Positions 3,801-57,695 of a stretch of 64,000 nucleotides of DNA are shown here, piece by piece (position 1 is the first letter of the stretch; every line of letters starts with the position of its first letter). The DNA lies in contig NC_042999.1 of assembly GCF_006345805.1 (NCBI RefSeq), positions 159,092,001 through 159,156,000 on the forward strand, given 5' to 3'. The stretch is from Octopus sinensis (taxonomy: Eukaryota). Under the pieces are notes generated by a model. It did not search any database. It saw nothing but the letters and a program-made list of their open reading frames with translations, and was not told the origin of the DNA. A program made the position numbers and the translations under genes.

Positions 3801-4392
3801 ACAAAATATTTATTCCGAACTTCTGAGCTCTGAGCTCATCTTTCTCCCAAGTCAAATTTTGCCATTCATCATTTCGAGATCGACAAAAAATTATAGCTAT
3901 ACGTTGTGGTAGTTGTTCTTTCTCTTTGCCTTCTGAGTTGAAATCCTGCCACCGCCTGCCTGTGGGTTAACCTTAAGCCGTAATCCAGTCAAACAATCTG
4001 GCTATGTCGGTGCCATGAGACGGTGTCATGGACACTGCCTTTCATCCTGACAAAAAGATATAAAAACAAGACTTGCAAATCATCTGAGCATGTTACAAAC
4101 TGACTGACAGTATCCCATTACAACGTGCTACGATGAAGAAAAGTGAGAAAAGTCACAGGTAAGAGATGAAATAGTTGGGGTGAAGTATAAGCTTAATATG
4201 TAGAAGTCAAACCTATAATTATATATATGTATGTGTGTGTGTGTGTGTGTGTGTGTGTGTACATATATATATATTTGTATGTACGTATTAATGCAACATA
4301 TTAATATATTTGTATGTACGTATTAATGCAACATATTAATAAAGTTTTGCCATTCCTCTGTCTTCCCTTCTCTGGATCTTTCCTTCTCCTAT

Positions 4393-4427
4393 GTTCCCGA
4401 CGAAGAGCTCCGCTCGAAACGTTAAAC
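4393..4427 (+). ncRNA. Minimal hammerhead (slightly mutated) in element 4350-4520, same family as 6533
   Basis: gttc CCGACGA agagctccgctc GAAAC GTT aaac; element 3' end runs into (TA)n. Confidence 0.65.
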
Positions 4428-4537
4428 CTTCCTTCTTTCCTGAGCGTCCAATAATACTATATTTGTTCCACGTCCTCCCGTTATTGTGTTTTTTTTGTGC
4501 TTTCTTGTTTGGATTAACTTTATATATATATATATAC

Positions 4538-5080
4538 TGGCTGTGTAGTAAGTAACTTGCTTTCCAACCACTTGGTTCTGAGTTCAGCCCCACTGAGTGG
4601 CACCGTGACAAGTGTCTTCTGCTATAGTCTCAGGCCGACCAAAGCTTAGTGAGTGAATTTGGTAGACGAAAACTGAAAGACGTCCGTCGTATAATATATA
4701 TATATATATATATATAAAACATTATTGGTGAATTGAAGAAATGGAGCTGAACGCAGATTGAACAGAAATCGTTTTATTTCATTCTACTGCTGTGATTTTT
4801 GCTACTAAGGTATCGGTTAAACTTTTGATTAATCTACTACAAGATTATTCATCTTTCTATTTCACATAATATATATATATATATATACATGTTTGTGTTT
4901 GTCTCCCCAGCATGCTGGTGTGTTTGCGTCCCTGTAACTTAGCGGTTCGGCAAAATTGACTGATAGAATAAGTACTACGATTACATAGGATAAGCCCTGG
5001 GATCGATTTGCTCGACTAAAGGTGGGTGCCCCAGCATGACCACAGTCAAATGACCGAAACAAGTAAAAGAATAAAAGAAT
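4538..5080 (+). mobile_element. Same abundant SINE, interrupted in its internal (TA)n by a PLE-type fragment (4720-4865)
   Basis: 5' half at 4538-4692 and 3' half at 4890-5080 are colinear with the other copies. Confidence 0.85.
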
Positions 5081-6172
5081 ATACATATATCTGTATCTGT
5101 ATCTGTATCTATAACTATATCTATATATATATATACATACACACACACACACACACACACACACATATATATATATATATATATATGTAGGTCCCGGGTT
5201 GAGTCGGGGTTAACCACAGTAAATAAGGTACTCAATACATAGCAGAGTAAATTAATTTATTTTATAGAAGGAGCTTCTACAGGACTAGAACTGTTTCATT
5301 TGAATGAAACAGTTCTAGTCCTGTAGAAGCTCCTTCTATAAAATAAATAAATATATATATATACATATACTAGTCTAAGCTGGCTAAATATGCAATGTAT
5401 TATTTAAATCATATAATAACAAAGATGATTGAAGGTACAGATAAAAATAATAGACTATATCAGTTAAAATGAACTGTTAATATAAAATAATTCTGTAAGG
5501 AATTTAATTTTCTTTCATCACGCTCTATAAATGGAATATAACCGTTCACTATACAACTTTCACTTTGTTTCCATTTCTCTCCGATAATTTTCGCTTTTTC
5601 TTCCACTCCATTGTTTATTGATAATAACTTGTTTTCATTTCAGTGCTTCGGGAATTTCCGTTCTGCAATGGTGCGCGTTCCCATCCAATCTATAAGTAAT
5701 CTTCTAAGTATATAAACACCACACATATGCATACACAATAGGCATGCATACACTTGCAAGATGCACGGATATATAAAATATGCATACATGTGTATGAGGG
5801 GCATACACACCTATATGTGTATGTATAAATATATATGTATGTATGAGAGAGAGAGAGAGAGAGAGAGAGATATGAATGCATATATATGTATGTAAACATA
5901 CGCACATGTATGTGTATGTATATATAATATATATATATATATATATATATTTAATCAATATAGGGTGGCAAAAAATTCTACAAAATTTTTTTTTGCCACC
6001 CTATATTGATTAATTATGAATTTTCTGGTTAATTCCGTAATGGAATCGGCGGCTTATATTTATTTGCTGCCGATAAATTTGGCGCGAGTGCGATGATTTG
6101 AAAATTTTAGGTCAGATATTGCCGAGGCAGGGACGGGAATGCCTCGTGAAAAATATCTGTTCCGACTTGGCT

Positions 6173-6279
6173 ATTTCTTACTGATGAATCTAAGGGCCTA
6201 TGGTAGATTGGCTTGATTTAATTTAATCAGGTTAGTTTACCATTAAACAGTAGACGAAACGGTGCATCGTATAAGAAAT
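6173..6279 (+). ncRNA. Type I hammerhead ribozyme with extended stem II, in element 5951-6405
   Basis: Stem I atttctta/taagaaat; CTGATGA; GAAA; stem III cggtgcatcg; GUA cleavage site. Confidence 0.85.
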
Positions 6280-6532
6280 TACAGGGTAAATGTTTTTTAA
6301 TTTTCTCCTGGTTTACGGAATTGATGTTATTTTGCGGTTAAAGCTTTTGGCTGTTATTTCTAGTGGGTGAATGGCCTATTATGGCCGTTCCTTGATTGTG
6401 ATATATATATTTATATATATTACAATATAAAGTTAATCCAAACATGAAAACACAAAGAGAAAACACAACAACGTGAGGACGTGGAACAAGTATAGTATTA
6501 TTGGACGCTCAGGAAAGAAGGAAAGAAGGAGG

Positions 6533-6567
6533 GTTTAACGTTTCGAGCGGAGCTCTTCGTCAGAAAC
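6533..6567 (-). ncRNA. Minimal type I hammerhead in element 6425-6650
   Basis: gttt CTGACGA a gagc-tcc-gctc GAAAC GTT aaac; loopless palindromic stem III (dimer type). Confidence 0.8.
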
Positions 6568-54750: not shown

Positions 54751-54769
54751 GTGTGTGCGTGTGTGTCTG

Positions 54770-55005
54770 TGTCTGTGTCTGCGTGTGTGTTTCTGTTTGT
54801 GTTTGTTCTCTGTCACAGCTTGACAACCGGTGTTGGTGTGTTTACGTCCCCTTAACTTAGCGGTTCGCCAAAAAGGGAGCGATAGCATAAATACTTGGCT
54901 TACAAAATAAGTCCTGGTTTCTACTTGTTCGACTTGAACCCTTAAAGGTGGTGCCCCAGCATAATCGCAGTCAAATGACTGACACAAGTAATAAAAAAAA
55001 ATGTA
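54770..55005 (+). mobile_element. Same abundant SINE, 3' half
   Basis: Matches the post-microsatellite half of the family. Confidence 0.8.
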
Positions 55006-55236
55006 AGAATATATATATATATAAATAACTGTTGTTACTACTTCAACGTGGTTGTCCCAAATAGAACATTATTACTACTCTTTTTAACCCCAGGAGGACA
55101 TCTCCTCCCGCTGGTTAATGACAGACTATCTTTGTTGGTAATGGTTATAACTGTCTGCTAGTCGTTAGTCCTAGTTTGCAATGTGTAAATAAATAAGTGA
55201 CACAAAACTGCTGATCTTACACAAGCAAAGTAGTTA

Positions 55237-56471
55237 TTAGGTTGTTCCGAAAATAATGGCCACTCTAAGTGTTGTGTTTTATCATAGTATTTTAATTATA
55301 ATTTACGTGAGTTTCGATGTATGTACTTTAATAATTTTCTACTTATTTCAGACAGAAAACATTCTTAACGCATAGAGAGCCTTAATTATGAACATAACAA
55401 AAAAGGAGCTTCGCTTACTTTTCTTACATGAATTCAAGCTTGGGCACAATGCCTCCCAAACTGCTGCCAATATCAACAGATCATGGGGACAGGGATCCAC
55501 AAGATATCGCACCGTACGCAGGTGGTTTCAGAAGTCCCGTAGTGGTGATGAGAGCCTTGAAGATGAAGAACGTAGAGGACAATCAACAATTGAATGCAAT
55601 TGTTGAGCAAAAACCTACGTCAAAATGTCAGAGAATTGTCTCAGGCACTTGGTGTCGGTATTGCAACGGTCTCACGCAATCTGCAGAAGATTGGTAAGGT
55701 GAAAAAGCTCGATAAATGAGTACTGCATGTGCCTAAGGAAAATCAAAAAGTTTGGGGTCTTGAAGTGTGCTCGATGCTCTTTCTGCGAAACATCAATGAT
55801 CCATTCCCCTTTCTTGATCGAATAATCATTTGTGAGGAACAGTGGATCCTTTATGATAACTATAAACGTTCAGGTCAATGATTTTTCCCAAGCATTTCCC
55901 AAAGCCAAAGTTACATAAGCAAAAGATTATGGTGACAGTCTGGTGGCCTGCAATTGGTGTTGTCCATTACAGCTTTCTGGAAGCCAATTACACCATTACA
56001 GCAGAGGTTTACAGCAATCAACTCGCTGAAATGCATGTTCACTTGCATAAAATGAGACCTGCATTGGTGAATCGGCGTGGCCCAATTCTGCTCCGTGATA
56101 ATGCAAAGTCACATGTTGCATGAATGACGCTGCAGAAACTCACAGCCTTAGGGTACGGGCTTTTACCACATCCTCCACATTCTCCTGATCTTTCACCCAC
56201 TGGATACCATTTTTAAAGTATTTAAACAAGTTTTTAAGTGATAAAACTTTCAGGTCAAAAACAGAGGTGGAATCAGTTTTCAAAGATTTATTAGCATTAA
56301 AGCCAATAAATTTTTATCAGCGAGGCATAAATACTTTCGTTGATCGATGGCAAAGATGCATAGATGTTCACGGCTCGTACTTTGACTAATCAAAACATTA
56401 TTTCTATTTTTAATTTTTCCAGGAATAAAATTATTTTTCTGAAATCCGCCATTATTTTCAGAACAACCAAA
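55237..56471 (+). mobile_element. Full-length defective mariner with both TIRs and TA duplication
   Basis: TIRs ttaggttgttccgaaaataatggc / gccattattttcagaacaaccaaa; TA at 55235 and 56472; WFQKSRSGDESLEDE, KIMVTVWW, DNAKSH and HSPDLSP motifs; stops and frameshifts. Confidence 0.93.
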
Positions 56472-56896
56472 TAGCTCTAAAATCTCTAATCGAGATGCAA
56501 GTAGTAACGGTTGTTACCACCTGACGGGGTTGTTGCATACAGAGCGCGTTTACTATTCTTTTTAACTCCAGGAGGACATCTCCTCCAGCTGATTAATGAC
56601 ACACTATATGTGTCCGTTGTACGTGTCCTCATGGGGCTAAAAGGAGTGTTAACAGTGTTCTGTATAGAACAACCCTGTTAAGATAGTAACAACAGTTACT
56701 TCTAAGTAGAGTTATTATATATATATATATATATATATATATATATATATATATATATATATATATATATATATATATGTATGGATGGATGTACATTTAT
56801 ATAGATATATATAGTGAGAATTTACAAAAAAAAAGACGAAGACGGGTGTGTAAACAACAAACAGATGTATTAGTTTAAGTGAGAAAGTAAGAAAGT

Positions 56897-56932
56897 CTTT
56901 TACGTTTCGAACCCACGCTCTTCGACAGAAAG
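56897..56932 (-). ncRNA. Minimal hammerhead with CUGUCGA core
   Basis: cttt CTGTCGA a gagc-gtgg-gttc GAAAC GTA aaag; element 56810-56937 lies between TA tracts. Confidence 0.65.
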
Positions 56933-57695
56933 GAACATATATATATGTGTGTGTGTGTATGTATATATATACAATTATATGTATATATGTATACATATAC
57001 ATACATATATATATATATATATATATATAGGCTAAAACAATGCGAACGCATTGTGACCAGCGATGTGTAACAACATCTGATGGTCTGGTCGGTCACGTGA
57101 TCACGTGATATATATATATATATATATATATATTATATATATATATATATATATATATATATATATAATATATATGTATGTATGTATGTATGTATGTATG
57201 TATATGTATATATGAAAAATAATAAGGGTAGAAAATTTAGGTGGCCAGCATGCGTAATAAAGTCAATATACAACATATTTTTCATATAAATTAGTATACG
57301 TTTTTAAACACGAAAGAAGACCTTAACAGGCGACCTTACATACTGGAAAGTGCAGTTAAAGGCCCTCTAAATTTTCGACCCTTATTAGTTTTCACAGTAA
57401 TATTTTCGTAATGTTGAAGAACATTGGTACACAATTTTAACTGTTATTATTATTTGTTATTAGGATTAACGGTTTTTTGAACACATAATATAATATACGT
57501 AATTGCGTTATGTTTTAGTTTTTATGGCATTAAATTCTCTAAATTGAAATGTTCTTCCAGATACGGTACTAATCGTTTATTTGTATGTGTATGCTAAGCA
57601 CATCTCCCTTCCTATATAACTTGAAAACTCTCTTATCCCCCTATAATCAAGCTTTAAATATTTTAACTTCATGAATCTAAAAAGAATTATATATC

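Follow-up and report, generated by a model that had tools for sequence, protein, structure and literature searches.

Head-to-head arrays of putative non-coding retrozymes in Octopus sinensis bear the tail signature of Penelope-like elements

Introduction

For the non-LTR (long terminal repeat) retrozymes of coral, mussel and axolotl, self-cleavage by hammerhead ribozymes and the formation of RNA circles have been demonstrated, and it has been proposed that the reverse transcriptase (RT) of Penelope-like elements (PLEs) copies the circles, with PLEs being called a “strong candidate” (Cervera and de la Peña 2020, PMC7229834). In vertebrates, a recent preprint describes non-autonomous tandem hammerhead units that are tied to PLEs; one of nine dimers was cleaved, and no mollusc is among the groups that it names (Li, Clavereau, Pollet, bioRxiv 10.64898/2026.07.22.740005). 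As to the enzyme, the Poseidon PLE protein of Anolis cuts and extends both target strands in vitro and starts reverse transcription at two internal sites that define a genomic “tail”, which is said to be common to PLEs and to occur in no other elements (Frangieh et al. 2024, PMC11167929); neither circular nor non-autonomous templates are mentioned there. Here we describe hammerhead elements in 64,000 nucleotides of the Octopus sinensis genome (assembly GCF_006345805.1, contig NC_042999.1, positions 159,092,001 to 159,156,000), in the following termed the window, whose own numbering is used throughout. Some of these elements are arrays of non-coding units, and the best overall explanation for them, to which we assign a probability of about 70%, is that a PLE enzyme started at both broken ends of the target and copied a single RNA monomer, probably a circle.

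The non-coding families, here designated C, E, L, J and K, fall into the already known class of non-LTR retrozymes, and it is the insertion footprint that is new. Like the metazoan retrozymes (PMC7229834), they consist of short tandem units of low GC content with a type I hammerhead and no reading frame, they co-exist with PLEs, and they are predicted to adopt a highly paired circular fold. The units described here are larger (359-606 bp versus about 170-400 nt), they have a long palindromic stem III and, in family C, a second hammerhead-like motif, and their arrays are head-to-head, with 3' ends that lie on (TA)n at two fixed unit positions, whereas the word “inverted” is absent from the main text of that study; on the other hand, cleavage and circles were demonstrated there, while the units described here are known from genome sequence. 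The size range of the vertebrate retrozymes (51-972 bp) spans our units, but the PLE link in vertebrates consists of co-occurrence and of similarity to PLE pseudo-LTRs (bioRxiv 10.64898/2026.07.22.740005), whereas it is the insertion footprint here, and no parent pseudo-LTR was found for our units among the PLE ends that were compared. No report of cephalopod retrozymes or of two-armed retrozyme arrays with PLE tails was found in our literature searches, which covered main texts, and the word ribozyme is absent from the main text of a recent Octopus repeat annotation (PMC13282606).

Results

The 2.7-Gb genome was searched with each hammerhead family, and the flanks of the copies were then read. 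The hammerheads of the window almost certainly represent two populations, namely truncated ends of coding PLEs and closed non-coding retrozyme units. The first-pass annotation, made from the letters of the window, had taken all its listed families for independent non-coding retrozymes, and most fragments in the window are indeed short and without frames. Nevertheless, six of the nine families, which hold 13 of the 17 listed hammerhead sites, are 5'-truncated in a nested manner and continue into an RT or GIY-YIG frame. These sites are the 5'-truncated ends, or pseudo-LTRs, of four Hydra-type (B, F, G, H) and two Neptune-type PLE families (A, A2), for which an independent retrozyme nature is refuted; as a view of all listed families it is extremely improbable. 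The number of retrozyme families had thus been set too high, most listed sites are ordinary PLE debris, and the description as ORF-free (open reading frame) elements of 150-600 bp is correct for the fragments in the window but not for these six families, whose PLE frames are found elsewhere in the genome or, in the case of H, within the window. Independence did hold for the 490-bp and the 365-bp element (families C and E, three listed sites), and it extends to the additional families L, J and K with elements of 565, about 510 and 359 bp.

Family C has a unit of 490 bp, exactly the period that had been noticed in the window, and it forms tandem arrays on many chromosomes with up to 13.5 units per arm (284 genome matches from 40 scored of 1114 candidates). 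One copy in the window, at 53773..54292 on the minus strand, comprises one unit plus about 26 nt and has a long 3' end on (TA)n (core at 54096, 19-nt motif, described below, at 53932), while the other, at 5950..6402 on the plus strand, is two-armed, with a short inverted arm that has the long end and a main arm that has the short end (core at 6181, 19-nt motif at 6345). The hammerhead core is intact in nearly all of 132 units, and compensatory changes preserve stems I and II as well as the stem III palindrome across the subfamilies. Every unit of family C also contains a second hammerhead-like motif with the A6C core CUGCCGA, 114 nt upstream of the main one (6067 on the plus and 54210 on the minus strand in the window), which is conserved as well, and its stems show compensatory changes between subfamilies. 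Family E, with up to three 365-bp units in tandem, is represented at 18426..18971 (plus) by two inverted arms with a long and a short end and a U3-A8 core at 18767; the earlier 365-bp period is therefore right as a unit length and wrong as a direct repeat. The 565-bp period of family L (19036..19722, minus) is real, and distant relatives form arrays of 606 bp (2.2 units) and 549 bp (11.2 units).

Families J and K are both interrupted in the window. The left part of J (45999..46295) contains an inverted arm and the start of a plus arm, with the 19-nt motif at 46073 on the minus strand, and its right part lies at 49030..49448 (plus). Between them, 9.7 copies of a 278-bp unit that resembles short interspersed nuclear elements (SINEs) and is 98% alike among copies are inserted at 46344-49034. 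Closed units of 485-513 bp were found at 5 of the 15 loci of family J and a closed unit of 359 bp at one locus of family K, in both cases with just over one unit present; these lengths replace the periods of about 425 and about 240 bp that had been read from the interrupted copies. Family K (55024..56715, minus) is split at about 55197-56455 by an insert that had been typed as mariner and for which we keep this type as stated there, one tested ORF having given no Pfam match. A hammerhead is present in 7 of 12 K loci, and the K copy in the window has lost it, as had been noted; for the other two elements that had been described as having a degenerate or no hammerhead this is incorrect, as family L has a U3-A8 core at 19385 (minus) and family J the core CUGACGA at 49155.

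When the units of C, E, L and J are circularised, the longest frame starting with ATG has 66 codons and no endless frame exists; GC content is 31-42%, and in predicted folds 59-68% of the bases are paired, with folding z-scores of -2.9 to -7.8 (25 shuffles each). No PLE protein match was found in any of 22 family C loci. Such matches do occur at two of the 17 E loci, one of the 16 J loci and one of the 12 K loci, and all of them lie in other insertions. Longer copies of C, E, J and K do not reach an RT or GIY-YIG frame, and because their units close on themselves, these families are not pseudo-LTR fragments. The young families show 97-99% identity. On every testable criterion, C, E and L would be non-LTR retrozymes, J and K less fully so, with cleavage and circles being predicted. 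The C unit was found in 20 sequencing runs, one of which is recorded as RNA, all in the form of assembled contigs. In presumed RNA runs (4 runs each, contigs without ends or strand), family C is covered while the single-copy flanks are empty, and its depth is far below that of neighbouring SINE-like repeats. In one presumed DNA run the depth on the C unit is about 800,000 versus about 50 on single-copy DNA, a ratio that does not give a copy number but hints at a high abundance of the unit.

The footprint was analysed in 22 family C arrays picked from the best matches. Eighteen of them are two-armed and head-to-head, with the 3' ends facing outward on TA and with variable inner junctions. The arms span 0.1 to 13.5 units and either arm may be the longer one, which is why a fold-back copying of one cDNA was rejected. 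In 16 of the 18, unit position 403-418 is the end of one arm, and the end of the other arm lies about 100 nt beyond it (p=6.6e-4 when tested against an independent choice of the two ends); moreover, the same rule of one long and one short end applies to all nine two-armed copies of family E and to 27 of 29 insertions of coding PLEs (B 10/11, F 13/14, G 4/4), the two fixed end sites being 60-140 nt apart. Could an enzyme of long interspersed nuclear elements (LINEs) move the non-coding units, as in the case of SINEs? The window is rich in LINE relics and SINE-like repeats, which also sit beside TA tracts, but the non-coding arrays have neither poly(A) nor a simple-repeat 3' tail. Moreover, a pair of fixed internal 3' ends of which each arm has one is described as unique to PLEs (PMC11167929) and is matched here by the coding PLEs, so that a LINE-type enzyme is highly improbable. 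It is very likely that a PLE mobilises the non-coding units. Copying by a PLE enzyme, which had been suggested before with reference to PLE relics in the window, is better supported by the tail signature, whereas the relics themselves are not tied to the units as a partner; due to the strict TA target, a Hydra-type PLE is the likeliest helper.

Units of family C differ by 0.31% between opposite arms, by 0.44% within an arm and by 0.95% between arrays, and all 24 variants that are fixed in a longer arm are also present in the other arm. Both arms therefore come from one type of template. The homogeneity of the arrays, together with PLE ends being everywhere in the genome, would also fit local satellites that grew by unequal crossover from a solo PLE pseudo-LTR, a route outlined in the discussion of the vertebrate preprint (bioRxiv 10.64898/2026.07.22.740005). 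However, the arrays are spread over many chromosomes, their 3' ends are fixed on TA whereas the inner junctions vary, and each of the two inverted arms is a multimer that has its variants in common with the other. Neighbouring units share few variants, and no parent of the units was recognised among the PLE ends that were compared. Local satellite growth is therefore already largely excluded and we regard it as improbable, although slightly less so than a LINE-type enzyme.

Family C, the L-type elements, family J and at least two further hammerhead families have a motif of 19 nt in common (19209-19227 on the minus strand of the window), after which a hairpin is predicted, and three families carry the motif at a fixed distance from both ends. 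In an 800-kb genome sample (400 kb beside the window and 400 kb from four other contigs) it has 51 matches versus 0-1 in five shuffles. Sample and window together contain 55 matches. A TA tract is present within 260 nt of 25 of them, and for 21 of those the distance to the tract is either 37-52 or 140-155 nt, which corresponds to the two end classes. The F, G, B and A elements contain no copy of the motif at up to three mismatches, and a matrix scan of 22 regions gave a single score above the shuffles (12.6, in the 3' untranslated region of G), which was not at the expected distance. One match beside a Hydra-type relic was considered as a trace of the helper and rejected, as it proved to be a separate non-coding element. 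Motif and hairpin likely position the enzyme.

The motif also occurs in an older dispersed repeat without TA ends (loci L136-L150, L173-L175, L195-L198 and L204), which might be anciently related to the retrozyme superfamily. Furthermore, the sample contains more TA-flanked non-coding families with a hammerhead, the motif or both, one of them with a 482-bp period: L165 (C3up 148300-149000), L133 (C3dn 27800-28050) and L134 (C3dn 37060-39600).

For the hammerheads of the window as a whole, we used a descriptor of the type I fold (core, stems I and II and palindromic stem III) and 30 block dinucleotide shuffles of the window as background. Eight hammerheads with a perfect core were found versus a mean of 0.1 in the shuffles, and 19 versus 2.2 when one core mismatch was allowed. 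All 17 positions listed in the first-pass annotation have a type I hammerhead-like motif on the implied strand; 13 were picked up by the descriptor, and those at 4397, 18767, 32127 and 32361 were recognised by eye only. The hammerhead family is absent among the 150 listed of 161 matches of an Rfam scan of the window at E<=5. The proposed position of the 3' ends on (TA)n proved correct, as a tract of at least four TA repeats follows within 330 nt downstream at 17 of 17 sites, compared with 29% of random positions. The claimed core CUGANGA is present at eight sites; the other nine have CCGANGA (six), CUGUNGA (two) or UUGAUAA (one). These non-canonical cores are family traits: the U3-A8 covariation UUGAYAA occurs in 16 of 18 copies of family E, CCGANGA in 23 of 26 of family B and 14 of 15 of family G (both counts biased by the query), and the A6U core CUGUNGA in 20 of 21 of family A2.

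Compared with the minimal hammerheads of PLEs (Cervera and de la Peña 2014, PMC4209133), the palindromic stem III, an unpaired base 5' of stem II, the U3-A8 core variant and opposite-strand pairs 100-700 bp apart are shared features, whereas the family-wide changes A6U (A2), U4C (B, G) and A6C (second motif of C) are differences. Descriptor matches at 43624, 19575 and 11471 were set aside as chance, since 2.2 are expected. A candidate hammerhead element between TA tracts lies at 20367..20707 (plus, core at 20481), and no locus of this type was found in the 800-kb sample. The sample contains 10 loci of family A, 7 each of A2 and L-type, 6 of G, 4 of C, 3 each of B and F, 2 of D and 1 of E, and none of H, J and K. 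Family D, a nested 5'-truncated element at 13075..13404 (plus, core at 13305), shows the truncation pattern of the PLE-end families and a tail of about 125 nt in other copies; across 34 loci, neither a closed unit nor a linked reading frame was found, and a GIY-YIG relic that precedes one copy by 1.2 kb was dismissed as part of another element.

Among the coding PLEs, family F is represented in the window by inverted long and short 3' ends of a young Hydra-type element at 31842..32497 (cores 32127, minus, and 32361, plus). Elsewhere in the genome (locus L081, 2764-5487, minus) it has an intact frame of 908 amino acids with RT and GIY-YIG domains, and its 3' ends are 99% identical across the genome, features by which it appears to be a recently active retrotransposon. 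The protein of this locus has no Pfam match; 427 relatives were found at E<=1e-30, nearly all of them unnamed, and the only informatively named relative of one of the PLE proteins is from Argonauta. The inner junction of the F insertion has a 69-bp direct duplication (32208-32347), which is a template-switch trace. Family G (32595..32963; cores 32733, minus, and 32897, plus) consists of inverted 3' ends and is the terminal part of a frameshifted element of the same type. Family H (33516..35347; cores 33638, minus, and 35283, plus) is a 5'-truncated element plus an inverted 3' end, in which a broken GIY-YIG frame (about 33861-34900, minus), the PLE relic formerly placed near 33570, lies about 220 nt before the hammerhead end.

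Family B has inverted short and long 3' ends at 16768..17062 (cores 16857, minus, and 16904, plus) and a single 3' end at 36187..36303 (plus, core 36210); it is 5'-truncated in a nested manner, with an RT frame reached through the tail in L006 and a GIY-YIG upstream in L241. The frames of G and B are broken, and H is a nuclease relic. The single B end is flanked by an inverted duplication of 257 bp (35820-36076 and 36318-36574, 99% identical), which is apparently single-copy and found only here in the genome; it possibly arose during the B insertion, and a membership in family B was rejected. Judged by motifs rather than by a tree, B, F, G and H are assigned to the Hydra-type PLEs: their translations contain DKT, RWK (RWL in family F) and a nuclease with CxxC and CxH, the target is (TA)n and the hammerhead lies in the pseudo-LTR. 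They share with the Hydra clade (Craig et al. 2021, PMC8557442) the single frame of RT and C-terminal GIY-YIG, the DKT, the RWK (in B and G) and the nuclease CxxC and CxH motifs, and also the presence of hammerheads, the insertion into (TA)n, 5'-truncated copies, inverted ends and a tail on one side. They differ from it by tails of 60-140 nt instead of 30-40 nt, and by RWL in place of RWK and a Ser/Asn-rich insert in family F.

Neptune-type 3' ends of family A lie at 4355..4520 (plus, core 4397) and 6432..6650 (minus, core 6563), and those of family A2 at 53526..53694 (plus, A6U core 53564) and, as an A2-type end, at 56814..56937 (minus, A6U core 56928). These ends sit in TA, TATC and TC repeats. 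Family A follows a Neptune-type GIY-YIG at a distance of about 1.4 kb in L269, L275 and L278, the last with a Cys-rich CxxxxCxxC linker and a GIY-YIG match under the Pfam cut-off (E 3e-4), and family A2 is preceded by a Neptune-like RT relic at one locus only (L093), so the name Neptune-type, which is based on motifs and not on a tree, is putative for A and, via that one locus, for A2. Of the other PLE relics that had been noticed, a broken Hydra-type RT at 9052..10338 (plus), which has no hammerhead end attached, was recovered by tblastn (9052-9935), whereas the one near 21410, a probable broken GIY-YIG end at 21385..22290 (minus), is supported by motif inspection (21410-22290) and is not among the tblastn matches.

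The window furthermore contains Tc1/mariner transposase relics at 14226-14576 and 25125-25499 (Pfam HTH_Tnp_Tc3_2 and HTH_48), and TA-flanked inverted-arm elements at 5186-5351, 13640-13776 and 8062-8930 with further copies elsewhere in the genome, which are probably ends of other PLE or retrozyme families whose copy in the window is free of a ribozyme.

Discussion

How could a PLE enzyme generate two-armed arrays of a non-coding unit? An array would be transcribed, and in the transcript two hammerheads would pair via their palindromic stem III and excise a monomer that is ligated to a circle, a step for which the compensatory changes and the findings in other animals (PMC7229834) argue. The GIY-YIG/RT protein of a PLE would then cut (TA)n and use both 3' ends of the target as primers, starting at two fixed positions inside the RNA; the two fixed ends are observed, and their cause follows from the behaviour of the Poseidon enzyme (PMC11167929), which belongs to another clade and has its start sites in the 5' part of the frame. 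Finally, the RT would go round the monomer as many as 13 times, and head-to-head arrays would result when both cDNAs join at variable points, a process that we infer from the observed architecture. The circle is probably the template. More tentatively, with odds of roughly one in three, the arrays might even be the record of twin target-primed rolling-circle reverse transcription of one circular RNA by a dimeric PLE enzyme, with the 19-nt motif and its hairpin as a portable start-site signal of the superfamily.

What alternative exists if the enzyme is accepted? The same PLE enzyme could use a linear template, either an uncleaved read-through multimer or a cleaved monomer between whose copies it jumps, and the hammerhead would then only trim transcripts. 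Arms of up to 6.6 kb would in this case need 13 intact ribozymes to remain uncut. Moreover, variants that occur in part of the units are rare (9, mostly in non-adjacent units, versus 36 fixed variants and 117 singletons), 141 of the 150 junctions at the cleavage site show no deviation, and the stems are kept by compensatory changes, all of which speaks against a linear template. We consider it unlikely, but clearly the most serious competitor of the copying of one monomeric, probably circular RNA.

Several observations weigh against this circular template and against the shared start signal. Of the 10 distinct variants that are fixed in an array, no more than 3 are confined to a single array, so that most of them are subfamily markers and give a weak indication of a monomer bottleneck. 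Among the 114 distinct singleton variants, 19 reappear in other arrays, a pattern that could also arise from a linear multimer as template, and the C singletons may be assembly errors. The 22 C arrays are young and similar because they were chosen from the best matches, and the rule of long and short ends was counted for C, E, B, F and G. The 19-nt motif was not found in E, K or any PLE 3' end tested, and a comparison of units with PLE ends gave no clear similarity (30 nt at E 0.003 for the best match). The shared motif could be due to common descent just as well as to function. The RNA data consist of assembled contigs, with cleavage and circle being inferred, and for the Poseidon enzyme hammerhead cleavage is not needed for insertion and unprocessed RNA is the main substrate (PMC11167929).

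The enzyme that mobilises animal retrozymes, and the role of the circle as template, are still debated, and the footprint described here makes this question testable in vitro. The octopus genome offers for this purpose a PLE-specific tail on non-coding arrays, young families, a candidate motif and an intact Hydra-type frame. If twin rolling-circle copying from both target ends is true, the mobiliser and the cis-signal of animal retrozymes would be identified, and a small RNA circle would be able to enter (TA)n as a multimer.

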